DNA of 64,000 nucleotides from Nitrospirota bacterium. Lineage in GTDB: Bacteria; Nitrospirota; UBA9217. The stretch covers positions 1,504,001 through 1,568,000 of the forward strand of contig CAVTRN010000002.1 of the NCBI GenBank assembly GCA_963737155.1, given 5' to 3'. The notes beneath the pieces are model-generated. The model made no database searches, was not told the DNA's origin, and worked only from the letters and a program-made list of their open reading frames with translations. The position numbers and the translations under genes were made by a program. Positions 37,121 to 53,337 of this stretch are shown piece by piece. Within the stretch, counting starts at the first letter, position 1. Each line of letters starts with the position of its first letter.

Positions 37121-37312
37121 AACAATGTTCAGAAATAGGGTTGAGGTAAAAAATCAGCCTGGTGCCCGGCAAGGTCCACTGCAACGGAAGAAGGCAGGTC
37201 GCTGTGTGCGAGCTTGATTGAACCGCAATACGCTAACATCTTTCTTCCAATTGTGCAACCGCCTTGGCAATGCCACTATGGTCCCTTCAAGATGCCGAAC
37301 TATCTTAATAAC

Positions 37313-38782
37313 ATGGTTGTACACAAGAAAAAAATTTTATTCATAACTACGGGCGTAATCACGCTTGTAGTCTTAGTGAGCGTCCTCGTTCTCCTGCTCA
37401 ATATGCAATGCTTCAAGCCGCAGATCGAGGCAGCTGCATCGAATGCTCTGGGAATGGATATCCGGATCAGGGGCAGGATGGGCATTGCTCTCTTCCCGGG
37501 TTTCGGTCTGTCGCTGAAGAACACCAGCGTGCAGAACGGGGAAGCGGATGTAGTTACCATTGAGAAGATGAGGATCGGTTTGAAGCTCATCCCCCTTATG
37601 AGGCACGAAATCCAGATAAGCCGGGTTGAGCTTATCAAGCCGGCCTTCTCCATCGTGCGGGACAAGAACGGGATGCTAAATTTTAAAAAAACAGGACGCA
37701 CGCTTTTGGGAAAGCCCCTCGCTGTGGAAAAGATATCCATCTCCCAGGGGAGACTTGTTTATACTAACGAAAGATCCGGCGAGAGGGTCGAAGTGGGCGA
37801 CTTCGATATGACCATACGAAACCTGTCGTACAACGGTACAAATAGCGTGGAACCAGCTAAGAACGGCTCATTCACCGGCGATATCAGCTGCAAGAAGCTC
37901 AAGATCAACAACATCACTATTACAAACCTGGTGATGAGAGCAACAGGGGAAAACGGAATACTCGATATCAACCAAGTCAGGATGGACATATTCGGCGGGA
38001 CCGGGAAGGGGAGCATTCATGTGGACGTGACGGGGGCATCGCCTTATTTCCGGGTAATCTATACTCTCAACCGGTTCAGGATCGAGGAACTAATGCAGGC
38101 ATCCCCGCCCGGGAAAATCCCAAAGAAAAGCATAGAAGGGACGGTCAACTTTTCCGCAAACCTGACGGCAACGGGGAAGAGCGCAGATGAAGTGAAGCGA
38201 TCGCTCAACGGCGACCTTTCTTTGAATGGGGAGAACCTTATGCTCAACGGCATCGATATCGATGCCCTTATCCCAAAGTACGAACGAAGCCAGAACTTCA
38301 ACCTCGTGGATGTAGGGGCGTTCTTCCTCGCCGGCCCCTTCGGCCCGGTACTCACCAAGAGCTACAATTTCGCAAGCCTGTACGAAGAGTCGCGAGGCGG
38401 AAAAGGGATCATCAGAAAACTTGTCTCACTCTGGAAAGTAAATCACGGTATTGCCGAGGCGAACGACGTGGCCCTTGCATCAAACAAACACAGGATCGCC
38501 ATGAAGGGTGGATTGAACTTCATCGACGACCGTTTTGTTGACGTAGTCGTAGCGGTTCTCGATAAAAGAGGGTGCGCTGTTTACAGCCAGAAGGTACACG
38601 GACCGTTCCGTAAACCGCAGATCGAGAAGGTAAGTGTCTTAAAATCAATATCGGGGTCCGTGTTGAACGCGCTGGGGGATGTGTGGAAATTAATTCAGGG
38701 TAAATCGTGCACACCATTTTACTCAGGTTCGGTGGCGCAACCGGAGGGGTTCTCAACTGGTCATGCTTTAATTGTATATTAG
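37313..38782 (+). CDS. AsmA family protein (last 10 aa read from the inserted element)
   Basis: N-terminal TM, KPQIEAAASNALG, RVELIKP, beta-rich repeats; start uncertain (37214-37313). Confidence 0.85.
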   Translation: MVVHKKKILFITTGVITLVVLVSVLVLLLNMQCFKPQIEAAASNALGMDIRIRGRMGIALFPGFGLSLKNTSVQNGEADVVTIEKMRIGLKLIPLMRHEIQISRVELIKPAFSIVRDKNGMLNFKKTGRTLLGKPLAVEKISISQGRLVYTNERSGERVEVGDFDMTIRNLSYNGTNSVEPAKNGSFTGDISCKKLKINNITITNLVMRATGENGILDINQVRMDIFGGTGKGSIHVDVTGASPYFRVIYTLNRFRIEELMQASPPGKIPKKSIEGTVNFSANLTATGKSADEVKRSLNGDLSLNGENLMLNGIDIDALIPKYERSQNFNLVDVGAFFLAGPFGPVLTKSYNFASLYEESRGGKGIIRKLVSLWKVNHGIAEANDVALASNKHRIAMKGGLNFIDDRFVDVVVAVLDKRGCAVYSQKVHGPFRKPQIEKVSVLKSISGSVLNALGDVWKLIQGKSCTPFYSGSVAQPEGFSTGHALIVY

Positions 38783-38821
38783 CAACTTTTATGATATATT
38801 ATATTTAATGGAATATATAAA

Positions 38822-40377
38822 CCTCAATAATGCACGAAAAAGGATATCTTAGTCATAAAACCAGCATAAACATTGATCGACGAAGTACGAGTTACTTGCA
38901 AAATCGTTAAAATTAAACTAGCTTGAGCCTATCAATTTTCTTGAGGGCAGCCTCAAACTGCTCGCGGTAGTGGTAATCGTGTGGCAATGCCAGGACATTC
39001 CGGCTGCCTTCCTTGCTCAGCTTGGCTGGCAAAACAAGGAAATCGGTACGTATTGAATCCAGTGTGGCGTTCAAATACTCTTTCGGAAGACAGAGCCGCT
39101 TGAACCAATGCATGATGTCGAAGGCTAATAACAATAATTGGAAGAATGCTACATTCGCCAGCCAATCCTCCGTCGGTATTTTGCCAAGGGGATAATCGTA
39201 AAGCAGTTCTCGAATGTTCTTCTCGATAGTTGCCCGTTTGGCGTAGAACTGCCAGATTCGCCAGGGATGAGCTTTGATGTTCGTCACAATGACGTGATAG
39301 GCATACTTCCGATCTTTGAAAAGTGTCAGTTGCTTGGCTTCTATCGGATCGTCGGGGATGGGACGCCGTACCACGATAAAACGATGCAGATTTTTCCAGT
39401 GCAACGGTTTGTACTTGAACTCGCTCACTTCCCAACCAGTCCCCAGTGATTTGAATCTGCATGCCCTGGCTTGGGATTTGATGGTGGAATATTCTTTGGC
39501 TACAATCGCGTAACCTATGCCAAGGGCATCGAGAAATTCGATCACATTGTGGCCGAAGAACCCTGAATCGGCCCGTATACGGATTCTTGACCGCGAGATG
39601 TTTTTGGGTGCTTTGGCCAAGCAGCGCTTCATGAACGAGATCACACCTGAACTGGAAGCAGCATTCCCCGGTCGGAGTGATCCATGCCAGAATTCCTGAA
39701 GATGCGCTTCGAAACACAAAAGCGGATGATAAGAACGTCTGCCTCGCTTCTTGGGATTGTACCCGACACGGGCGAACTGTATTTTCCCATAGATTGTCAG
39801 CACCACGGAGTCCAGGTCGAAGATCAGCGATGTTCTCGGTTTGGGTAAAGGAAACAACATAAGCCGAAGCCGATCGTGGAGTGCAACAAGTTGCCGGATG
39901 TCTTTGGGCGTAAGTCGTTTGAGAAATCGACGGATCGTAGACTGATTCGGGAATTGTGGCAACCCTAAGAGCGAGAGAAACACTCCGTTGTATTGTAATA
40001 TCTCGGTCTTGTTGATTCGGCGAAGGCCAACCATGACCGCAAAGAGCAGGGCGAGGATGAGATCGGAAGGACGATAGCTGCCATTGCGGAGATTCACTGT
40101 CACCACTTGCTTTAATAGGCGGCGCAGTCCGAGTTTGTTGCAAAATCGTTGGAGTAGTACCATCCCGCCGAAGTGCGTTAGGTGAGTATCTTTGAACGAT
40201 AGACGCAGTGTTTGCAGGCCTTTTGACATTGTAAAACGCGAAATAAGGTGAGTAAATGGCTTCTTCCGGAAACCGTCCATTTTGGACGGATTCCGGTATA
40301 TAAAAATTATAACGTTCTATATGCATTTTTGCTGAATCTTTTGATATCGCATTCATGATTTTCATGCATTATTGAGG
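38822..40377 (-). mobile_element. IS1380-family insertion sequence
   Basis: IRs CCTCAATAATGCAYGAAAA; 5-bp duplication ATAAA at 38817-38821 and 40378-40382. Confidence 0.92.
38913..40280 (-). CDS. IS1380-family transposase
   Basis: LTHFGG, QSTIRRFL, DLDS, GYNPKKRGRRSYHPL, LRPGN, RADSGF, YAKRATIE. Confidence 0.93.
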   Translation of the reverse strand: MDGFRKKPFTHLISRFTMSKGLQTLRLSFKDTHLTHFGGMVLLQRFCNKLGLRRLLKQVVTVNLRNGSYRPSDLILALLFAVMVGLRRINKTEILQYNGVFLSLLGLPQFPNQSTIRRFLKRLTPKDIRQLVALHDRLRLMLFPLPKPRTSLIFDLDSVVLTIYGKIQFARVGYNPKKRGRRSYHPLLCFEAHLQEFWHGSLRPGNAASSSGVISFMKRCLAKAPKNISRSRIRIRADSGFFGHNVIEFLDALGIGYAIVAKEYSTIKSQARACRFKSLGTGWEVSEFKYKPLHWKNLHRFIVVRRPIPDDPIEAKQLTLFKDRKYAYHVIVTNIKAHPWRIWQFYAKRATIEKNIRELLYDYPLGKIPTEDWLANVAFFQLLLLAFDIMHWFKRLCLPKEYLNATLDSIRTDFLVLPAKLSKEGSRNVLALPHDYHYREQFEAALKKIDRLKLV

Positions 40378-40425
40378 ATAAATAAGGGTTACGCATCAGT
40401 AAACCAATAACTTGAGGCCGTAAAA

Positions 40426-42117
40426 ATGTCAAATGGGAAAAGAAGCAAAAATAAGAATGTTGGTGGAAAAGACACCCTGTCATTCACTGCAAATATGCTT
40501 CTGGATGATCATCCCTACCCGGAAATAAAGACCTCTCTTTACGCCATCCTCGACGATACGGGCATCTTGTATGGCCGTATAAAGAGGACTCTGTTCAAAG
40601 ACTGCATTCGCTCCGGCAAAAAAACAACAGAATTAAAGAACGAGTACCTGTCAACGTACAAGATCACCGCACGGCAGTTCAATGCAATCCGCTATGATCT
40701 GGACGGGAATGTCAAGGTGGTAACGGAAATCAACAAGCTCAGGACCCTGGATCTTGAAGAGAAAATAATATCGGTAAAAAAGTGGATTGCAAACAATGAA
40801 TCAGGAATACTCAAAATAACGGCTGATGCGGGTATCCCGAACACTGAAAAAAAGAACCAGGCAAGAGAGCTTCAGTATCGTGTTGATAATAAGAAACGAA
40901 AGCTTGCTTCTTTGGAGCAAAAGCTTTCCAAACTCAGGGAAGATCAGAAAAACGGGCGGGTAAGGATTTGTTTCGGGTCAAACAAGATATTCAGAAAACA
41001 ATTTTCCCTGGAGGAAAACGGGTACAAGAGCCACAATGAATGGCTTCTGGACTGGAAAGGGTCTCGCAATAACACCTTCTTTTGCCTTGGCTCGAAGGAC
41101 GAATCGGGCGGGAACCAAACGTGCACCCTGAAGTCCGATGGGACGATGAGATTAAGGGTCCCTGATTGTATAAAGGACAAATACGGGCATTCCATTATAA
41201 TGCCCAGCATAAAATATCCCTATGGCCAGGAACATATCGAAGCGGCCCTTCAGGCCGGAACAGCGATTTCTCACCGGTTTACCAGGGGCGGGAAGGGCTG
41301 GTACCTGCACACGACGGTAGATATTCCAAAGGCAAAAACAGTTACTTGCAAGCCAAAGGAAATCGGGTCTATCGGAGTGGACGTCAATGAAAAAGAAATT
41401 GCGGTTAGCGAGACCGACCGGTACGGGAATTATGTCAGGAGCATAACATATCCATCCTGCGTTAAGGATTTGCGCACTGAACAGACAGAAGCAATGTATA
41501 GCGATATCTGCAAATCCATCGTGGACCGGGCAGCCAAGACGGGAAAACCTATATCCCACGAAGAACTCGATTTTAGCAAGAAGAAAGCATCCTTAAAAGA
41601 GCAGGGCGTTACTTACGCAAGGATGCTTTCCGGTTTTGCCTACGGAACCTTCCTCACCCTGCTGGATAGAAGGGCGGCAAAACATGGCGTTTCCGTGCTC
41701 CCGGTCAACCCTGCTTTCACCACGATCATAGGGAAATTTAATTACGTGGACCGCTATGGCATTACGTCGCATGAAGCTGCGGCGCTGGCCATCGCGAGAC
41801 GTTCTCAACATTTCAGTGAAAGGCCTGATTCCGCCAGAATCGCGTCTCCCGTACCTGCAAGGAATCGGGGGGCGCATATCTGGAGCATTTGGAGAAGGCT
41901 GAAGACGAGACGGGCGGGCGGTAGCATTAGCCTGACCGGCTCAAGGCGGTCCTTACAGGACTCCTCAGGTTGCGCTGAACCACAAACGAAATTTACAGCA
42001 ACGACGACAGCGCAATCCATGCGGCCACCTCTTGCTACAATAAAGAGTGTACACCGCCGCATGGGATCCCAATTCATAAATCACGGGACTTGGGTGAATC
42101 AGAGGCATGCGCCCTGA
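40426..42117 (+). CDS. tnpB: TnpB-related RNA-guided nuclease (large, zinc-finger-less type)
   Basis: RuvC-I IGVDVN, RuvC-II HEELDF, VNPAFTT...SHEAAALAIARR. Confidence 0.85.
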   Translation: MSNGKRSKNKNVGGKDTLSFTANMLLDDHPYPEIKTSLYAILDDTGILYGRIKRTLFKDCIRSGKKTTELKNEYLSTYKITARQFNAIRYDLDGNVKVVTEINKLRTLDLEEKIISVKKWIANNESGILKITADAGIPNTEKKNQARELQYRVDNKKRKLASLEQKLSKLREDQKNGRVRICFGSNKIFRKQFSLEENGYKSHNEWLLDWKGSRNNTFFCLGSKDESGGNQTCTLKSDGTMRLRVPDCIKDKYGHSIIMPSIKYPYGQEHIEAALQAGTAISHRFTRGGKGWYLHTTVDIPKAKTVTCKPKEIGSIGVDVNEKEIAVSETDRYGNYVRSITYPSCVKDLRTEQTEAMYSDICKSIVDRAAKTGKPISHEELDFSKKKASLKEQGVTYARMLSGFAYGTFLTLLDRRAAKHGVSVLPVNPAFTTIIGKFNYVDRYGITSHEAAALAIARRSQHFSERPDSARIASPVPARNRGAHIWSIWRRLKTRRAGGSISLTGSRRSLQDSSGCAEPQTKFTATTTAQSMRPPLATIKSVHRRMGSQFINHGTWVNQRHAP

Positions 42118-42442
42118 CGTTAACCGGCAGCAGCACTGTTCGGCTGCCGTCCTAGTATATGGAAATAAAATACTATGGTTCCAAGAACGGTAAGAGTACT
42201 CAACCGTTACTTCTTTCACTTTAGGCGGAGCAGGAGCAAGACGATTCTACTCTGTTGTAATAATTGCATCGTTGTCATTCTCCAAGGTCCACCTCTCCGC
42301 ATAACAATATACTCTGCATTATGCTCGATTTATGGGGTCAACTATAGACTTATAAATTTGCGCTAAGACTTTGTATATGCTAAAATTGTTTATCCATACT
42401 AACATGTAATGTTTCGGTGATAACCTCTCGAAGGGAACGATT

Positions 42443-43564
42443 ATGGGCGGTATAGAGATTATTGTTGCGGAAGGGGGGTCGGAATTAAAGGACTTCATTG
42501 ACCTGCCGTGGAGGATCCATGCTAAGCACCCCAACTGGGTTCCTCCCCTTAAGAAAGAGGTTCTCCGGATGCTGGACCCCCACAGACACCCTTTCTGGGA
42601 GTTTTCTGAGGGCATCCTCTTTCTGGCCCGACGTGGTTCGGAAACGGTGGGAAGGATCGCGGGCATCATAGATCGCCGTTATAACCAGTTCCACAACGAA
42701 AAGATGGGCATCTGGGGATTCTTCGAATGTGCTGACGATCCGGAGATTGCGGCAGCCCTCTTCTCTTCCGTGGAAACGTGGGTTCGCCGGAAAGGGATGG
42801 CCTTCATGAGAGGCCCGCTCAACCTGTCCACCAATTACGAGGTGGGCTTGCTCATTGAGGGCTTCAATTATCCGCCTGTCGTGATGATGGCATACAACCC
42901 GCCGTACTACCTGGGGCTGGTCGAATCGTGCGGCTACACCAAAGAAAAGGACCTGTTGGCTTTCCTGATAGATGGCGAGTACCGGCTTCCTGAGTGGATG
43001 GATCATCTTGCTGAACGGATAGCCAAAAAAAAGGGTATCCATATCAGGCTCTTTCGTCCAAAAGAAGAGGATGCTGAGTTTGCCCTTATCAGGGAGATAT
43101 ACAATGCCTCTTGGTCCAGTAATTGGGGTTTCGTCCCCCTGACCGATAACGAAATGCGGGACATTCAAAAGAACGTAATGGAATTCGCAGATCCGGACTT
43201 GGCTTTTTTCATCTATTATGAGAATGAACCCGCAGCAGTATGCGTGATCTTTCCCGACATTAACCCATTGCTCAAGCGTCTTAACGGGCGGATCGGTCTC
43301 ATGGGTCTGCTGAAGTTCCTCATATATCGGCGTGAGATCAAGGGACTGAGGTGTTTGATGTTCGGGATCAAGGAAGAGTACCGACAACTGGGAATCCCTT
43401 TGCTTGCCTTTCACCACATATATGAGATCGCGAGGAGACAAAAGAAATATCAGCAGCTGGAGATGGGCTGGACCCTGGAGGACAACGAGTCGATCAACTC
43501 TTTGATTGATGAAGCGGGCGCAAAAAGATATAAAAAATATCGAATATTCAGAAAGTCCTTATGA
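42443..43564 (+). CDS. YghO / bacterial ceramide synthase-like GNAT acyltransferase
   Basis: FIDLPW...WVPPL, VGRIA, GFFEC, RGP, GLLIEGF, YNPPYY, WGFVP, PDIN, WTLEDN. Confidence 0.85.
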   Translation: MGGIEIIVAEGGSELKDFIDLPWRIHAKHPNWVPPLKKEVLRMLDPHRHPFWEFSEGILFLARRGSETVGRIAGIIDRRYNQFHNEKMGIWGFFECADDPEIAAALFSSVETWVRRKGMAFMRGPLNLSTNYEVGLLIEGFNYPPVVMMAYNPPYYLGLVESCGYTKEKDLLAFLIDGEYRLPEWMDHLAERIAKKKGIHIRLFRPKEEDAEFALIREIYNASWSSNWGFVPLTDNEMRDIQKNVMEFADPDLAFFIYYENEPAAVCVIFPDINPLLKRLNGRIGLMGLLKFLIYRREIKGLRCLMFGIKEEYRQLGIPLLAFHHIYEIARRQKKYQQLEMGWTLEDNESINSLIDEAGAKRYKKYRIFRKSL

Positions 43565-44958: not shown

Positions 44959-45018
44959 TACGTGGGCGCATCGGGTGGAATATACCCAACTGGCGAATTG
45001 TCATTAAAAGGTGAATGC

Positions 45019-48000
45019 ATGGTGATGAAGCAGAGGTCTGACATAGTGGCTGAGCATGGGATCTCTATCATCGGTTTTGTCTGGCGGCCTGAGGAGATCA
45101 CCCCATCGGTGATTCAAATGGCTCAGCGAACAGGGAGTAGGGCCGTCTTCGATTTTTCCATGACGAGGGTGGAGGGGTTACGTTCTTTCTTGCGAAAGGC
45201 TGACCCTGCCGGCCGCGTTAGGGACATCAAAATTGCTGTCCCTGCCTTCTTTGATCCATCGTTGGGGCAGTTATTGAAGGAAACTGGGGTCGACGACATC
45301 TGGGTAGAGTGCCATCCCGAGTTCTTTCAGGGAGATCCTTCCCTCTTTATGCAGCGATTGAGGGAATTGTCGGAAAACCACCATTGCTTTCCCATCATCG
45401 GTGACATGGATCTCCTGATAGCGATTTTGAAGGATAGCTCGGGCATCGGGCGCATCGTCCTGAAAGGATGCGAGGCCTCTGGATTTGTGAGCGGTGAGAC
45501 GACCACGGCTCTCTATTCGATGGCCAAGGAAATGCTGCATTCGCCCTCAAATGCTCTCGACATCCTAATCTGGGGAGGCGTCTCTACCCCTGAGGCGGCA
45601 GCGGCATTTCTGTCGACCGGGGCAACTGGGATCGTTTTCGAGAGCGTCCATTGGCTGACAGATATGGTTGCCATGGATGATGTTCAACGCCAGCAACTCT
45701 CCAATCTCCGCCTGGATTCTACCGATCTGGTTGGCTTGGATCTGCAGGTTCCCTGTCGCCTTTTCAACAAAGGAAACTCGCTTGCGTTCAAGGAGATTAA
45801 AACGTTTGAGGATTCGCTGCGCGGAGCGGAGATTACGGAAGAAAGCCGCCGCTCTTTTGTAAGCCAGGTGTATGCCAGTGCCCTCCATCCTTTGGAAAGC
45901 CGTTTCGGTCAGTATGAGGTCATCCCTCTTGGCGTGGAAGCTGCCTTTGCTGGGTCGTTTGTTGAGCGTTTTGGGGCTGGAACTGAGGAGGCCGTGAAAG
46001 CCTTCATCGACGAAATTCGTAACACATGCCGACTGGCTGAGGCAAAAAAGGATTGCTTTCTGGACAGTCCTGTCGCCAGAGAGATGGGAACCCTCTACCC
46101 CTTTATCCAGGGTGCCATGTCCTGGATCACGGATGTCCCGGAGTTTGCCGCTAGAGTTGCTGATGCCGGTGGATTGCCCACCATCGCCCTTGGCCTGATG
46201 GACGCAGAGACCCTTGACCGGAGGCTGGGACGCTTGCCGGAGATCATGGGGGGGCGCCCTTATGCAGTGAATGTCGTCTCTTTGGCAGAGAACCCTTTCC
46301 GGGAAACGCATTTGGCCTGGATAAAGAAACAGAGACCCAGTTTTGTCGTGATCGCAGGTGGCGATCTCTCCCCTTTGAGAGAATTGATAGAATGCGGCTT
46401 AGGGGTTATGTATATTGCTCCTGATGAGGCGCTGCTGAAACTCGCCGTGGAAGCCGGCGTTCGGTACGTGGTCTGCGAGGGGTATGAGGCCGGCGGCCAC
46501 GTTGGGCAGCATAGCACGCTAACCCTTGCTCAAATGGTGCTGGATCTGAAACGGCGCACGCCATCCCTGTTCAAGAACTGTCGCGTGATCCTTGCAGGGG
46601 GAATCTTTAATCGGGAGACCGCATTCATGGCCGCCATGCTCGGCGCGGACGCCATCCAGATGGGCACCGCCTATCTGGCCACCCAGGAGATCGTTGAAAC
46701 GGGCGCCTTGACGGCACTCTATCAGCGGCTGATTCTGAAATCGCCTCCGGGGGGAACAGTCGTTTCAGGCCGGGACACTGGACTTCGGGTGCGGTCCTTG
46801 AAGACCCCGAGAGTTGAAGCTATTTTATCTCTGGAGAGGGAGTTTGCAGCAGGCCACCAGGACGAGGCTTCTTTCCGGGTGAGAATGGAGGAAATGGCTG
46901 CGGGGAGCCTCTTCGCTGCAGCCCGGGGCATGGATAGGCCAGGCGAGGTGTCACTGGATGAACGGGCCTGTCTGGAACGAGGGCAATTCATGAGTGGGGC
47001 CTGCGCCGGTCTCATACGCGAGGTCCAAAATCTGCAGTCCTTTCACCGCGATCTGGCCGAGGGTCCTCTCTCGCTGCATCTGCCCGCTGTGGGTTCGATC
47101 GAGAGAACCGCGGAGGCGCCATTCTCCTCGGTCAGCCCGGGACGGAAGCGAGTTGTGCCCCACGGAGACGATCGTGAAAGGGTTGCCATCACCGGGATGA
47201 GCATACTTAATGCCCTGGGGAAGAGTCCGGAGGAAGTCTGGACTTCAAGCCTGGCCATGAAGAGCGGGATTACCTTGGTTCCGCCTTCGCGGTGGGATCA
47301 CACACTTTTCTATGATCCCCGGCCGAACGTTCCGGACAAGACCTACTGCAAGGTGGGCGCCTTTACCGATTTTCATATTTCTCGCAATGACCTCGGGATT
47401 TCTCCCCATGATTTCCGTTCCATGACCGAAGCAACAAAGATCACCCTGTGGTTGGCGGACAAGGCCATCCGGGCATCGGGTATCCTCGATTCGGACATCC
47501 CGCGCGAACGGATCGGCGTCCTCATCTCCCAGAACTCGGGAGAGGCGGCAGGGGTTCTTACCAATACCATAATCAGGGCGTACGTTCACGATATCCTCAT
47601 TTCCGCCAAAAGGGCCGTGCACCTTACGCCGCACCAGGAGAGCGCCATCGAACGAGAGGTGAAGTCAGGACGCATGTCACCTGACGACACCACACTTCTG
47701 GGCAGACTCAATTGCGCGGTGGCCGGCTTCATCTGCAGCCGGTATGGGTTCATGGGGCCAAGCTACGCCGTCTCTGCAGCCTGTGCGACCTCGCTGGTTG
47801 CACTTCACAGCGCCATCCAGATGATCCGGAGCGGTATCATCGATGCAGCCATCGTTGGCGGGGGCGAGGAGAATCTCACTCATTTGCATTTTCTGGAATT
47901 CTCCGCCCTGGGCGCACTTTTCGGGATGTCCGGAAAGGAAAGACCCGCTCACGAGACCTCCCGTCCCTTCGATGCAGAACGAGATGGGATGATCCTCGGC

Positions 48001-51000
48001 GAAGGCGGGGGGATGATCGTCATCGAGCGGGAAAGCCTGGCCCGCGCACGAGGGGCGCGTCTCCACGCATTCGTGACAGGCATGGGAGCGAGCAATAACC
48101 ATCTGAGCATGGTGGAGTCCTCCCATGTCACCCAACAGATGGCCATCCGTGCCTCTTTCCGAGGGATACCCTATGGACCCGATGCCGTGGACCTCGTGGA
48201 ATGCCATGCCACGAGCACCCGGCAAGGGGACGTGGAGGAGGTCCGCGCTCTGAAGGCCGTCTTCAATTCCTCCAAGCGCACCGTGATCACCTCATTCAAA
48301 TCCCAGATAGGACACACGCTGGGCGCCTCGGGTATTAACAGCCTCATTCGAGGAGTCACGGCTATGAAGGCGGGGATTTTTCCTCCTACCCTCAATTATA
48401 TGCATCCAGATCCGGAAATCGACTTGAACGGATCGGGTCTCCTCATCGCCCCGGAGCCACTTGACTGGACTTGCAGGGTCGGCGAGCCAAGAAGGCTTCA
48501 GGTCAATGCCTTCGGGTTTGGAGGTTCCAACTACGTTGCGCAGGTGGAGCAGGCTATGGATGAATCGGATACGATCCTGGTCTCACCCGGCAGAGAATCC
48601 GGACTTGATAGAGAGAAGAGGGATGGCTCTCCCACGCTCCAAGGCGTTTTTTTCTTTCGAACTGAGATCGACGGCCGCAATCTCCGGCTGGCCGTCGTGG
48701 CGCAAACCGAAGAGAATGCGCTCATGGTCATCGAAAGGTCGGCCTCCATCGTCGAAGCCGGGGTTGCCTCACCCAGAATATTGAGATCCTTGGCGCAGCA
48801 GGGGATTTTCATGAGCCCCGAGGATATGCCGGCCCTACCGCTTGCCTTTGTATTTCCCGGACAGGGATCACAGTACGGAGGAATGGGGCTGGATCTCTAC
48901 GAGTCCTTTCCCGTCATCAAGGAGTGGATGGATCGGGCTGCAGTTGTAGCGGACTTCGACCTCCTTCATTTATTGTTCCACGATCGAGAGGAGAATCTTC
49001 AGAAGACCCGGTGGCAGCAACCTGCCATGTTCGCCATGGAACACGCCATGGCTCGATACCTCACTACTCTGGGTATCCATCCCGTGGCCATGGCTGGCCA
49101 TAGTTTGGGCGAACTGATCGCCTTGTGCCTGGCCGGTGTCTATTCCGCGGAGGACGGATTTCGAATTGTGAACAAGAGGGCCCTCTGCATGGACAAGGCC
49201 GCTGCCATTCACAGGGAACCCGGCGTCATGGCGGCCGTGGACGCTCCCCTGGATCTGCTGAAAGAGATGATCCGGGGACGGGAGAATGTCCACATCGGCA
49301 ATATTAATTCACCGAACCAGGTCGTCCTGAGCGGTAACACCGGGGCGGTCAAGGATATTGGCAAAAGACTGAAGGAAATGGGATACCGGGCCACCCTGCT
49401 GCCGGTTAGCATGGCCTTCCACTCTCCTAACATGAGGGTCATTCATGACGAGCTCGAGGCGTACATTGCCTCCATTCCATTTAATTCCCCGCAGATTCCG
49501 GTCATCTCCAACACGACCATGGCACCGTATCCGTCAGATCCCGGGGAAATCAGGCGAATCCTGATGGCTCACCTGGAATCTACCGTCCATTGGATGAATA
49601 ATGTCCAGACCCTCTGGAATGACTACGGAGCCCGGCTCTTCGTGGAGGTGGGCCCCGGAGAAATACTAAGCAATCTCATCTCAGACACGCTTCCTGAACC
49701 GGTATGCATCCAGACGTGCCTTCCTTCCGCAGAGGGCCTGACCTACAAGACCGCTCTCGCTCAGCTCTTCGTTCAGGGTCATCTAAGGGCTGAAGGAGAA
49801 CTGCGGTTTGTTCCCCTCCCTGCAGTCGGAAAAACTCCTGGGTCTCGCCGGATCGCCCCGGCACCCTCGTTATGGCCGTCGGAACCTGGGCTTGCAGGCT
49901 CCAACCCGGTGGAGAGGATCATCCAAAGGGAAATCAACCGATTCGTGATGAAGAACTTCGGACGCTCCCTTAAGCCCAACATCCTGGAAGCGATCCGCCA
50001 GGAGCTTGACCCAACATTCCAGGAAGGCGACCTGTCATCCGTCATCAGATCCATGTTTGAGGGTTCCGGGCCTCCTGAAGATCAGAAACAGGTCGTTCTC
50101 GGTAAACCGGCATCCCCGTATTTCGATTCCACACGTTCCATTCCGGGACAGGCCTCACTTGCCCCCGGTGAGGCGTCCGAGGGCCAGGATCTTATGGAGA
50201 GGCTTATACGGATCATCATGGATGCTACAGGGTTCAATAGGGAGGAGATCCAACCCGATATGGATCTCAGGAAGGACCTCTCCATCCGGTCCAGCCGCCT
50301 CCCCATCATCATGGATGCTGCGGAACGCCAATTCGGGATCACTATCGAATTGGAGGATTTTATCAATGTCCGCACTGTGAAAGACATTGCCCAGAGAATC
50401 TCCAAGATAATCGCCAGGCAGGGAGGTACCGTCCTGACGCCAGCCACTCAGACGGCTGAAGCGGGCTTCATGCACGGTAAAGCCCTGAAGCCCTCTCCGG
50501 CCATTCCGGGACAGGCCTCCCTTGCCCCCGGTGAGGCGTCCGAGGGCCAGGATCTTATGGAGAGGCTTATACGGATCATCATGGATGCTACAGGGTTCAA
50601 TAGGGATGAGATCCAACCCGACATGGATCTCAGGAGGGACCTCTCCATCCGCTCCAGCCGCCTCCCCATCATCATGGATGCTGCGGAACGCCAATTCGGG
50701 ATTACTATCGAATTGGAGGATTTTATCAATGTCCGCACTGTGAAAGACATTGCCCAGAGAATCTCCAAGATAATCGCCAGGCAGGGAGGTACCGTCCTGA
50801 CGCCAGCCACCCAGGCGGCTGAAGCGGGCTTCATGCACGGTGAAACCCTGAAGCCCTTACAGGATGAGTCGAGTTTAAAGCGGCTCGTATTCAAGAGCGT
50901 TCCTCTGAAGCTATCGGCCCCGGCTCCACTACAAATGAGCCCAGGCGAGTCAGTGCTTCTTCTGTCACCGGAAAGGGATGACGAGATTGCTAGGAATGTC

Positions 51001-53337
51001 GATGATATATTCCGGCAGGATTATGGGGTTGACACGATTCCCCAACTCTTTATGAAGGAGAAAGATGCTGGACAAAAAGATTGTGATATTCTAACTGATG
51101 AAGGATCCCGTAAGGTATCGGAGCGAATATCGAGTTTGACGTCCCTGGCCGGGTTGGTTATCACCTTACCGAAAGGTTGGTCGGGAAAGTTAAAGGGCAT
51201 GGCTGATGTTTCGCGACTCCTTAGGGGACTCTTTCTCCTCCTGAAGCCATTTCTTCAATCACCGGCAAAGAAATTCGTGGTGCTGATCCATTCCAGGGAG
51301 GATACCGAAACTCTCGGTCGGCTGCTGGCGGAAGGGATGCTTGGACTTTTTCTGAGCGCAGCGCAGGAACACCCATCTGTCCAGTTTCGCACCGTAGAGA
51401 TTGGGATCGATACCGACCTTCGCGTTGCCTTGCGCGATGCTCTGGACAGAGGATGCACTGTAGTGGAGATCATGCATCGTGATGGAAGGGTCTTCACTTC
51501 GGAGGCACACCTGGCCCCTTCAATTTTCGGGAATTCACCAGGTCTGGCCCTGAGCCCTGGAGACGTTGTCGTCATGTCCGGGGGCGCAACCGGGATCAGC
51601 GCTCACTTGGCCCGCAGCCTTGTGCCTTTCGCGCCCCGCCTGGTCTTTCTGGGAAGGACCCTTCTCGATTCAGGCATCCATCCAGAAAAGCCGCGGACCG
51701 GACATTCGGCTTCCGAGGCGTTCTCTTTAGACCCAAGGGCAGCGGAGATTGCCCGGATGCTTGCGGATCTGCACTCCGCGGGGGTCGAGGCAATCTATCG
51801 TACCTGCGATGTAACCGACCCCGAAGCGGTCCGAGCGATCATGGGCGAGGTGACAAACCATTATGGCAGGATCGATGGGATCATTCACGGCGCCGGTGTC
51901 CTCAGGGATGGCCTATTAATCCAAATGACCCCGGAGGATCTCTCCCTGGTCATGGACGTCAAATTCCTCGGGGCCTGGAATCTATTCTCAACTGCAGAGG
52001 GGGCCGGCCTGAGGTTTTTCGTGGGCCTCTCCTCGGCGGCCGCGATCCAGGGGAATCCTGGCCAGGCCAACTACGCTGCAGCCAACCGGATGATGTCTGC
52101 GTTACTCGGAAACCTCCGCCGGAAGAATGGCGCCATCCGGTTCAAGGCTTTGATGCTTCCCCCTGTCGAGGGGACGGGCATGGCTGAGGACCCGGAGGTT
52201 CGGGAACTGATGAAGCGGAAGGGCGCGGCGTACATCCATGTAAATGAGCTTGCGGGGCTTTTCTGCCGGGAGCTCTTCATAGCCCCGGCTGACGATGATT
52301 GGGTGATGTTCATGCGGAGGCTGCCATCCGTGAGGACGGCACTGCTCAACGATACAGCCCGTCCTTCACTCAGCGGAGAACTGGATGGAGGCACCGTATC
52401 CTTAAGCCCTGAAAACTTTCCCATGATAGAAAGGATCTCTTTTCTGGACATCTACCGGGAAGAACTGGAGGCCTTCAGATCCTTCTCCCGGGAGAAGGAT
52501 CATTGGATCGAGGATCATCGGCCTTTCAAGTTCGTCAAGCATCCTCTGGTCTCAGCCGCAATGGTCCTGGAGATATTCATGGAAGCCGCCCGTATGCTAT
52601 ATCCCCATCTGCAGGTGCGAGGAGTTAGCCGGGTGCGGTTCATGGACATGATTGAATGTCCCCCCGGGGTTCCACGGACTTCCAGGATATCGTGCCGCCG
52701 GACCGGCAACGGCCTTCGGGAGGTAGTGTGCGAGGTCTCTCTCGCAGCACAGGAGATCTCCCCCGCTGGGAGATTGACCGACCTTCTTACCCCGCACTGC
52801 AAGGGCCACGTGATCCTTGATGGCGGGGATGGCGGAGGAGAACATGTCGGAGAGGTGCTCCCGGATTTTACTGTCCGGCTGGACGAACTGCGGACGAGGC
52901 CCATGGATCATAAAAAAGTGATTAAATGGTATGAAGACCGCAGCGGCCTCGGAGGCAGGTATCGTGTGATGGAGTTCCTTGACGGTGCGGGTCCAAGAGT
53001 GGTGCGGGGCCGAACCATATACCGTGAGACAAGTGATTTCGCACATCTCCGGAGCACCCAGTACCAATATTCTCCCTACCTTTTCGAAGCCCTTTTGCAG
53101 ATGGCCGGCTTCCACGTCGCTGCAACGGACCCCTCAGAGCGACGATCGATGGTCCCCATGGAGATAGGGGACATGAGGTTCTTGCGCAAATGCCGGGCAG
53201 GGGAACAAATAACCCTGGAGGCCCGCATGCGGGCGCAGGATGACAAAGGCGTCGTCTGGGACGCCAGAGGGATTGACGACCAGGGCCGCACCGTCATGCA
53301 GATTCGTGGCATTCGGTTGCACTGGGTTTTGGATTGA
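45019..53337 (+). CDS. iterative type I FAS/PKS (Pfa-like): FabK/NMO-like x2 - KS - AT - ACP - ACP - KR - DH
   Basis: EAGGHVG, AGGI, QMGTAYL; KS ACATS / CHATST / IGHTLGAS; AT FPGQG / GHSLG / AFHS; KR GGATGI / YAAAN; DH DHRP...EALLQ. Confidence 0.93.
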   Translation: MVMKQRSDIVAEHGISIIGFVWRPEEITPSVIQMAQRTGSRAVFDFSMTRVEGLRSFLRKADPAGRVRDIKIAVPAFFDPSLGQLLKETGVDDIWVECHPEFFQGDPSLFMQRLRELSENHHCFPIIGDMDLLIAILKDSSGIGRIVLKGCEASGFVSGETTTALYSMAKEMLHSPSNALDILIWGGVSTPEAAAAFLSTGATGIVFESVHWLTDMVAMDDVQRQQLSNLRLDSTDLVGLDLQVPCRLFNKGNSLAFKEIKTFEDSLRGAEITEESRRSFVSQVYASALHPLESRFGQYEVIPLGVEAAFAGSFVERFGAGTEEAVKAFIDEIRNTCRLAEAKKDCFLDSPVAREMGTLYPFIQGAMSWITDVPEFAARVADAGGLPTIALGLMDAETLDRRLGRLPEIMGGRPYAVNVVSLAENPFRETHLAWIKKQRPSFVVIAGGDLSPLRELIECGLGVMYIAPDEALLKLAVEAGVRYVVCEGYEAGGHVGQHSTLTLAQMVLDLKRRTPSLFKNCRVILAGGIFNRETAFMAAMLGADAIQMGTAYLATQEIVETGALTALYQRLILKSPPGGTVVSGRDTGLRVRSLKTPRVEAILSLEREFAAGHQDEASFRVRMEEMAAGSLFAAARGMDRPGEVSLDERACLERGQFMSGACAGLIREVQNLQSFHRDLAEGPLSLHLPAVGSIERTAEAPFSSVSPGRKRVVPHGDDRERVAITGMSILNALGKSPEEVWTSSLAMKSGITLVPPSRWDHTLFYDPRPNVPDKTYCKVGAFTDFHISRNDLGISPHDFRSMTEATKITLWLADKAIRASGILDSDIPRERIGVLISQNSGEAAGVLTNTIIRAYVHDILISAKRAVHLTPHQESAIEREVKSGRMSPDDTTLLGRLNCAVAGFICSRYGFMGPSYAVSAACATSLVALHSAIQMIRSGIIDAAIVGGGEENLTHLHFLEFSALGALFGMSGKERPAHETSRPFDAERDGMILGEGGGMIVIERESLARARGARLHAFVTGMGASNNHLSMVESSHVTQQMAIRASFRGIPYGPDAVDLVECHATSTRQGDVEEVRALKAVFNSSKRTVITSFKSQIGHTLGASGINSLIRGVTAMKAGIFPPTLNYMHPDPEIDLNGSGLLIAPEPLDWTCRVGEPRRLQVNAFGFGGSNYVAQVEQAMDESDTILVSPGRESGLDREKRDGSPTLQGVFFFRTEIDGRNLRLAVVAQTEENALMVIERSASIVEAGVASPRILRSLAQQGIFMSPEDMPALPLAFVFPGQGSQYGGMGLDLYESFPVIKEWMDRAAVVADFDLLHLLFHDREENLQKTRWQQPAMFAMEHAMARYLTTLGIHPVAMAGHSLGELIALCLAGVYSAEDGFRIVNKRALCMDKAAAIHREPGVMAAVDAPLDLLKEMIRGRENVHIGNINSPNQVVLSGNTGAVKDIGKRLKEMGYRATLLPVSMAFHSPNMRVIHDELEAYIASIPFNSPQIPVISNTTMAPYPSDPGEIRRILMAHLESTVHWMNNVQTLWNDYGARLFVEVGPGEILSNLISDTLPEPVCIQTCLPSAEGLTYKTALAQLFVQGHLRAEGELRFVPLPAVGKTPGSRRIAPAPSLWPSEPGLAGSNPVERIIQREINRFVMKNFGRSLKPNILEAIRQELDPTFQEGDLSSVIRSMFEGSGPPEDQKQVVLGKPASPYFDSTRSIPGQASLAPGEASEGQDLMERLIRIIMDATGFNREEIQPDMDLRKDLSIRSSRLPIIMDAAERQFGITIELEDFINVRTVKDIAQRISKIIARQGGTVLTPATQTAEAGFMHGKALKPSPAIPGQASLAPGEASEGQDLMERLIRIIMDATGFNRDEIQPDMDLRRDLSIRSSRLPIIMDAAERQFGITIELEDFINVRTVKDIAQRISKIIARQGGTVLTPATQAAEAGFMHGETLKPLQDESSLKRLVFKSVPLKLSAPAPLQMSPGESVLLLSPERDDEIARNVDDIFRQDYGVDTIPQLFMKEKDAGQKDCDILTDEGSRKVSERISSLTSLAGLVITLPKGWSGKLKGMADVSRLLRGLFLLLKPFLQSPAKKFVVLIHSREDTETLGRLLAEGMLGLFLSAAQEHPSVQFRTVEIGIDTDLRVALRDALDRGCTVVEIMHRDGRVFTSEAHLAPSIFGNSPGLALSPGDVVVMSGGATGISAHLARSLVPFAPRLVFLGRTLLDSGIHPEKPRTGHSASEAFSLDPRAAEIARMLADLHSAGVEAIYRTCDVTDPEAVRAIMGEVTNHYGRIDGIIHGAGVLRDGLLIQMTPEDLSLVMDVKFLGAWNLFSTAEGAGLRFFVGLSSAAAIQGNPGQANYAAANRMMSALLGNLRRKNGAIRFKALMLPPVEGTGMAEDPEVRELMKRKGAAYIHVNELAGLFCRELFIAPADDDWVMFMRRLPSVRTALLNDTARPSLSGELDGGTVSLSPENFPMIERISFLDIYREELEAFRSFSREKDHWIEDHRPFKFVKHPLVSAAMVLEIFMEAARMLYPHLQVRGVSRVRFMDMIECPPGVPRTSRISCRRTGNGLREVVCEVSLAAQEISPAGRLTDLLTPHCKGHVILDGGDGGGEHVGEVLPDFTVRLDELRTRPMDHKKVIKWYEDRSGLGGRYRVMEFLDGAGPRVVRGRTIYRETSDFAHLRSTQYQYSPYLFEALLQMAGFHVAATDPSERRSMVPMEIGDMRFLRKCRAGEQITLEARMRAQDDKGVVWDARGIDDQGRTVMQIRGIRLHWVLD
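50138..50856 (+). repeat. 363-bp tandem duplication encoding two ACP domains
   Basis: Units start at 50138 and 50501 and are near-identical. Confidence 0.92.

Follow-up and report, generated by a model that had tools for sequence, protein, structure and literature searches.

A candidate non-autonomous IS607-family transposon, with a variant TnpB-like gene and a predicted guide RNA, at the stop codon of asmA in a Nitrospirota bacterium

The element and its surroundings

We analyzed a 64,000-nucleotide stretch of a Nitrospirota bacterium genome (hereafter the window; assembly GCA_963737155.1, contig CAVTRN010000002.1, positions 1,504,001 to 1,568,000), focusing on a 3.44 kb insertion (38750-42190) that lies between the last glycine codon of asmA and a TAA at 42191. 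Leaving aside an IS1380-family insertion sequence (IS) nested in it, this insertion is a 1.88 kb IS607-family element, its extent counting one of the two GG cores, whose only gene is tnpB-like and whose right end is predicted to encode a guide RNA (omegaRNA, also called reRNA). An earlier, sequence-only reading of the window had pointed to such an element, and its statements on the asmA end, the right-end hairpin and the TAA all hold on re-reading. The features of the locus are listed below in window coordinates. Family 1 denotes the copies of this element in the genome and family 2 a sibling family; a slash within a sequence marks the element boundary.

37214..38749, + strand: asmA coding sequence, ending here at the native last codon (Pfam AsmA, E 6.8e-40)
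38748..38749, + strand: left core GG, the putative crossover site; with the preceding flank GG it reads GGGG (consensus RGGG)
38750..38821, + strand: left-end segment of the element, TTCTCAACTGG..., AT-rich, its last 5 nt (ATAAA) being the IS1380 target; in register with the other copies and the family-2 left end
38822..40377, - strand: nested IS1380-family IS; inverted repeats 38822-38840 and 40359-40377, transposase open reading frame (ORF) 38913-40280 (- strand)
40378..40425, + strand: remainder of the 5' untranslated left part of the element, contiguous with 38750-38821 in five other copies
40426..42117, + strand: tnpB-like ORF, 563 aa; D319 (RuvC-I), E379 (RuvC-II) and H449 at the RuvC-III Asp position, assigned from alignment and model
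41945..42190, + strand: predicted omegaRNA scaffold, ~245 nt, 10 helices, ending ...GAACGG, from covariation
42189..42190, + strand: right core GG; element-side ACGG versus flank-side RGGG, differing at -3
42191..42210, + strand: displaced asmA stop TAA (42191-42193) and putative guide flank, start within 1 nt; conservation among copies drops right after 42190

The element separates the last asmA codon from its stop

The 3' end of asmA reads ...CAA CCG GAG GGG, with Gly512 at 38747-38749; from there the present frame continues with TTC and runs ten codons into the element (FSTGHALIVY) before a stop at 38780-38782. Orthologs of asmA were found in three relatives (83%, 74% and 72% identity), all of them free of an insertion and ending ...AQPEG, ...PQPEG and ...AQPE directly before the stop; none ends in FSTGHALIVY, the ending that would have refuted the earlier reading. 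Nucleotide homology with the closest ortholog (relative G011, 92% over 749 nt) halts exactly at 38749, and in G011 a stop codon stands where the window has the element. Joining the flanks of the window element at the GG gives CCG GAG GGG TAA, the junction that the sequence-only reading had proposed and that the QPE(G)-plus-stop endings of all three orthologs bear out. The first ~15 nt after 42190 also resemble the sequence past the stop of the G011 ortholog.

These comparisons indicate that the element inserted precisely, at a site that is unoccupied in relatives. The consequence for the host is small, a 10-residue tail on AsmA. The true start of asmA is probably downstream of 37214, because the orthologs match from residue 32 only.

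Other copies share the ends, and an IS1380 lies within the left end

The genome holds five further copies of the 40378-42191 stretch, 96% identical and all without the IS1380, giving six family-1 copies in all. Four of these five start GG/TTCTCAACTGG like the window copy (the shared family-1 left end being GG/TTCTCAAC...), and all five finish ...GGAACGG/, followed by unrelated flanks. The right end of the window copy reads ...CCAAGAACGG, finishing at 42190 with the TAA next, and contains the hairpin formed by CGGCAGC (42125-42131) and GCTGCCG (42143-42149). Common ends combined with divergent flanks argue that the boundaries are not due to chance; the ends that had been read from the window alone are thus shared by five other copies on the right and by four on the left. 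The family-2 left end aligns in register with that of family 1 from GG/T, and since in one family-2 copy the T is preceded by no more than GG, we set the boundary at GG, not GGG. A GG core is found at both ends, with no target duplication and flanks that are otherwise unrelated, which is the IS607-type arrangement suggested earlier and is supported by the other copies, the orthologs and published IS607 TnpB work alike.

In the fifth of the other family-1 copies (C1:1463094-1464975 of this genome, G000) the left end is truncated or has been replaced, the match beginning at left-end position 21, and a stop falls within the first 70 codons; this copy is probably dead.

The nested IS1380 is an ordinary member of its family, with a transposase scoring 274.7 bits against NF033539 (cut-off 180), terminal inverted repeats of 19 nt (95% complementary) and a 5-bp duplication, ATAAA, on both sides, the second at 40378-40382. 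It is the sole full copy in the genome. Its end lies 48 bp before the tnpB ATG (40426), as the sequence-only reading had noted in placing it ~50 bp upstream of the gene, but it is not merely adjacent: the left 72 nt of the window element (38750-38821) run straight into 40378 in other copies, so the IS1380 is nested inside the element. It landed in the AT-rich left end after the element itself had inserted. Contigs assembled from four soil-metagenome runs contain a joint of 38816 to 40378, with 5 letters shared at the joint, and a joint of 38814 to 40380. We considered these as this locus without the IS1380 and rejected them as products of IS1380-free paralogous copies; the loose end before 38747 in the first contig is the left flank of another copy, and the second would have arisen likewise. 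No group I intron was found at the left end (~120 nt), where an Rfam search at E <= 1 gave two chance matches only.

A TnpB/Cas12 fold with a histidine at the RuvC-III position

The 563-aa protein scores 41 bits against the TnpB model NF040570 (cut-off 100), over residues 361-435, and matches no family in Pfam. Its AlphaFold model (predicted local distance difference test score, pLDDT, 80.6) was compared with solved structures by VIA-align, Foldseek also being run. It aligns with ISDra2 TnpB (8exa) at Z 14.4 and a root-mean-square deviation of 3.8 A over 286 residues, with Cas12f at Z 13.7-14.9 and with Cas12k at Z 15-15.5, model residues 16-490 being covered, and a profile search of solved-structure sequences returned marginal Cas12f matches only (E 0.04-0.07). 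The model indicates a WED-REC-RuvC fold of the TnpB/Cas12 type. Residues 497-563 have pLDDT below 50 and are predicted to be disordered; this segment overlaps the RNA scaffold.

A word-based search recovered 423 relatives at E <= 0.001, and 531 encoding stretches turned up in a scan of genomes, the nearest of them in Nitrospirota and others in Chlamydiota, Bacillota, Verrucomicrobiota, Pseudomonadota and Chloroflexota. In an alignment of 38 relatives picked from 120 listed, D319, E379 and H449 are invariant in all 38, so that the active site reads D-E-H in place of the RuvC D-E-D triad. H449 stands three residues ahead of an invariant Ala-Ala and occupies what we take, from the surrounding motif and from the account of clade RIIIr-4 in PMC10691335, to be the position of the canonical TnpB RuvC-III Asp. 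Nor was a C4 zinc finger found, as none of the 38 sequences has cysteines between residues 428 and 449. The label tnpB given by the sequence-only reading thus suits the fold, but the protein is not a canonical TnpB in score, active site or zinc finger.

Replacement of the RuvC-III Asp by His together with loss of the C4 zinc finger has been described for a major TnpB clade, RIIIr-4, in a computational survey whose account of the clade predicts activity and links part of it to RHH/MazE-like antitoxins (PMC10691335). The 38 relatives share both traits with RIIIr-4, a match that is by clade description only. A full-text literature search found no experimental work on RIIIr-4. ISDra2 TnpB is a 408-aa protein. 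It resembles the window protein (structures 8exa and 8bf8) in its WED-REC-RuvC fold and in a guide RNA overlapping the 3' end of its gene, a feature that is predicted here; in contrast, it is described as belonging to an IS200/IS605-type element with a Y1 transposase and to a typical clade with both a zinc finger and the canonical RuvC-III Asp motif.

A predicted, covarying RNA structure stops at the transposon boundary

An alignment of the last 260 nt of ten elements (two from family 1, two from family 2 and six from Nitrospirota assemblies) yielded a consensus fold with 10 helices, some of them long-range, and 59 pairs; among the helices are 41945-41948 with 42118-42121, 41962-41970 with 42088-42097, 42099-42104 with 42112-42117, 42125-42131 with 42143-42149, and 42151-42157 with 42171-42177. 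Compensatory changes were seen at 19 pairs, 95.2% of cells were paired as compared to 33-42% when partners were slid by 1-3 columns, and the covariation score was reached by none of 500 shuffles. A covariance model of the last 110 nt (the 3' module), run on 61 related loci (taken from 80 that were fetched), matched 55 of them across several phyla, always on the tnpB strand and just past the gene. In 53 distinct sequences, 19 of the 20 pairs of this module showed compensatory changes and 93.9% of cells were paired versus 28-42% when slid, in an alignment that was fitted to the model and hence favours pairing. These observations support a predicted structured RNA that overlaps the 3' end of tnpB, covering the last ~57 codons of the ORF, and stops at the transposon boundary. 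Rfam contains nothing relevant to the element.

By analogy with described systems, the right flank from 42191 would serve as the guide. The sequence-only reading had suspected that the guide might be sequestered through pairing of its ACCGTT with the terminal AACGGT. Folding of the free RNA (scaffold plus 20 nt) does not bear this out: the mean pairing probability of the window guide is 0.48, inside the range of 0.27-0.69 for 19 copies, and the match is therefore unremarkable.

One Nitrospirota relative (L034, 3217-3237) has a tandem duplication of the last 7 nt ahead of GAACGG (TTTTTAG twice), which shows that a change of length is tolerated just before the boundary.

The flank motif and its published parallels

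We counted bases at 20 left ends of both families, leaving out a 21st match with a truncated left end. The left core is GG in 19 of the 20 (one degenerate copy has GC); the base before it (-1) is G in 19, and the base at -2 is a purine in all 20 (A 13, G 7). A right-end GG occurs in 25 of 31 matches including fragments, the other six being degenerate or mis-projected fragments, and in 19 full-length copies the base after it is T (17) or C (2). Matches in 54 related loci of other genomes end in GG (53) and mostly in CGG (51), with T (36), C (17) or A (1) next. This first base, nearly always a pyrimidine, could be part of the recombinase target or of the RNA scaffold, and not of the guide. Read from these ends, the insertion site is RGGG/T (GGGG in the window) and the element's own right end is ACGG. 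Of the GAGGGG that had been put forward as the target-adjacent motif (TAM), the 20 sites thus uphold RGGG, but not the whole hexamer.

Assigning the TAM to the left flank and the guide to the right flank, as the earlier reading did, agrees with published work on IS607 TnpB (bioRxiv 10.1101/2023.11.20.567912, PMC10711439). According to the former, in an IS607 IStron of Clostridium botulinum TGGG is at once the target of TnpA and the TAM of TnpB, the omegaRNA finishes with UCGG, and a G at -3 separates the vacated from the occupied site; the 5'-TTGAT TAM reported there is that of an IS605-superfamily IStron. The C. botulinum system (TnpA-S, CboTnpB and omegaRNA), as there described, and the window element are alike in having GG cores at both ends, an xGGG left-flank motif serving as both transposase target and TAM, a scaffold ending in CGG that allows discrimination at -3, and a guide taken from the right flank, these roles being assigned here by analogy. 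They differ in that the window element has no group I intron and no tnpA, is flanked by RGGG instead of TGGG, encodes a TnpB that lacks a zinc finger and carries His at the RuvC-III Asp position, and has a longer predicted scaffold (~245 nt). ISXfa1 TnpB, which depletes GGG, offers a second parallel in its IS607 context, its GGG TAM and a right-end RNA crossing the transposon boundary, as is predicted here; in the account given, its RNA is ~150 nt and its protein of the zinc-finger D-E-D type (PMC10711439), in contrast to the zinc-finger-less D-E-H protein of the window.

Probable mobilization by a sibling family

No serine-recombinase TnpA gene lies between 38750 and 42190, which makes the element tnpB-only, as had been proposed, and non-autonomous. 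The absence of such a gene holds for the window element but not for the genome, which has 15 matches above the cut-off of NF033518 (IS607 transposase), none of them within a family-1 copy. The matches lie in sibling elements that share 85-92% identity with the window element over the last ~100 nt. Family 2, with 58% amino-acid identity to family 1, about a dozen copies and a near-identical right end, carries a 189-aa gene upstream of and overlapping tnpB that scores 197 bits against NF033518 (cut-off 110) and has a Pfam Resolvase match. Nucleotide identity between the families rises from 0.5-0.77 along tnpB to 0.85-0.92 in the last ~100 nt, a rise that fits a shared recombinase site. We consider it likely, on these sequence grounds, that the family-2 TnpA mobilizes family 1 in trans.

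In addition, some 10 isolated fragments of 50-110 nt match the right end (the 3' RNA module) only, with no tnpB adjacent; examples in G000 are C2:327259, C2:1151723, C2:2748631, C2:3015640 and C1:256115. These may be what is left of decayed copies, or else guide-RNA units that stand alone.

Interpretation and alternatives

We favour, with a probability of roughly 0.8, the explanation that the locus is a non-autonomous IS607-family transposon consisting of a tnpB-like gene and a right-end guide RNA, which is predicted to direct recognition of the vacated insertion site. The element integrated by recombination at the GG of the RGGG/T formed by the last Gly codon of asmA and the TAA, whereby AsmA gained its 10-residue tail and its stop was displaced by 3.44 kb. 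The family-2 TnpA would both excise and integrate family-1 elements at GG. By analogy, the last ~245 nt would be transcribed as a structured omegaRNA running into the flank, and the complex of TnpB and RNA would recognize the vacated site (a TAM of ~GGGG plus the flank from 42191) and spare the occupied ACGG. Such recognition would favour retention of the element after excision.

Apart from the model-fitted alignment of the 3' module, several points weigh against this explanation. No contig of the four soil-metagenome runs joins 38749 to 42191, contigs instead breaking at 38746/38747 and at 42191-42198, so the empty allele that the sequence-only reading had pointed to is represented by the insertion-free orthologs of all three relatives but by no assembled contig of those runs. 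Nothing in the 1.5 kb that follows the three orthologs matches the sequence after 42191, and synteny is not conserved there; with no match past the first ~15 nt, the right-flank homology is suggestive at most. The flank motif could reflect TnpA preference alone. The protein scores below the TnpB cut-off and has neither a zinc finger nor the canonical RuvC-III Asp, which makes its nuclease activity uncertain. Finally, the IS1380 stands between tnpB and the left 72 nt, a stretch that might hold a promoter; expression of this guide is therefore doubtful, and the guide RNA of this copy may not be made. A sigma-70 consensus scan of the left end of an intact copy found no promoter, a scan that may not suit this host. 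The protein could be supplied by the other five copies.

The uncertainty over the nuclease leads to an alternative that we regard as unlikely, in which the description of the element stands but the His-variant TnpB cuts no DNA, acting as an RNA-guided DNA binder or a nickase with a function outside double-strand-break homing, such as repressing or marking the vacated site. Such a role would suit a protein that lacks a zinc finger and in which, as in 38 of 38 aligned relatives, H449 takes the place of the RuvC-III Asp. Among its top structural matches are Cas12k and Cas12m, two proteins that bind but do not cleave; moreover, TnpB-derived non-cutting regulators have been described, in the survey cited above (PMC10691335) and in other work. 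On the other hand, D319 and E379 are invariant, and the His is itself invariant and not degenerate, the kind of conserved rearrangement that the same source takes as retained activity (PMC10691335). The elements are also multi-copy and mobile with a TAM-like flank, as in active homing systems. A more specific form of this idea, that the D-E-His, zinc-finger-less TnpB of this widespread clade makes no double-strand cut as a homing nuclease and binds or nicks the vacated RGGG by means of an unusually long guide RNA of ~245 nt, seems to us quite improbable; if true, the way in which such IS607 elements are retained or re-targeted would differ from what has been shown for canonical TnpB.

Could the conserved 3' region instead be a recombinase DNA site and not an RNA, with the motif reflecting TnpA preference and TnpB having no guide-dependent role? 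The last ~100 nt are the part best conserved between the families, as a shared TnpA site would be, and in the C. botulinum element TnpA alone is reported to prefer TGGG (bioRxiv 10.1101/2023.11.20.567912). Yet long-range and local helices keep their pairing through compensatory changes over 245 nt, far past the terminal ~100 nt, and in each of the 55 matches the structure is on the same strand as tnpB, which leaves this explanation very little room. It is harder still to credit that the flanks were never contiguous, inter-copy recombination having set the asmA end beside an unrelated right flank so that no empty allele ever existed: many genome copies could recombine and the sequence after 42191 is unmatched at the orthologous loci, but the right GG is directly followed by an in-frame TAA, at the place of the stop in orthologs, the right flank resembles over its first ~15 nt the sequence after the G011 stop, and the site fits the RGGG/T consensus on both sides.

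If the favoured explanation holds, the element works like transposons already described, and what is new is the placing of its TnpB in an apparently untested, His-variant and zinc-finger-less clade that seems to have been catalogued by computation only. As an unusually clear natural read-out for this clade, the locus provides exact ends, a flank motif from 20 sites, a guide with a known target and covariation-supported scaffold bounds found in several phyla. It thereby supplies all that is required to assay cleavage or binding by an RNA-guided protein that is compact (~500 aa) and has a His in its active site.

Neighbouring genes

The gene following the insertion (42443-43564, + strand) is a 373-aa ORF with only a sub-threshold match to GNAT-type acetyltransferases; nothing corresponding to it follows asmA at the three orthologous loci. 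About 3 kb downstream, a 2791-aa ORF (44962-53337, + strand) encodes a megaenzyme resembling polyketide or polyunsaturated-fatty-acid synthases, with NMO (enoyl reductase-like), ketosynthase, acyltransferase, carrier-protein, ketoreductase and dehydratase domains.

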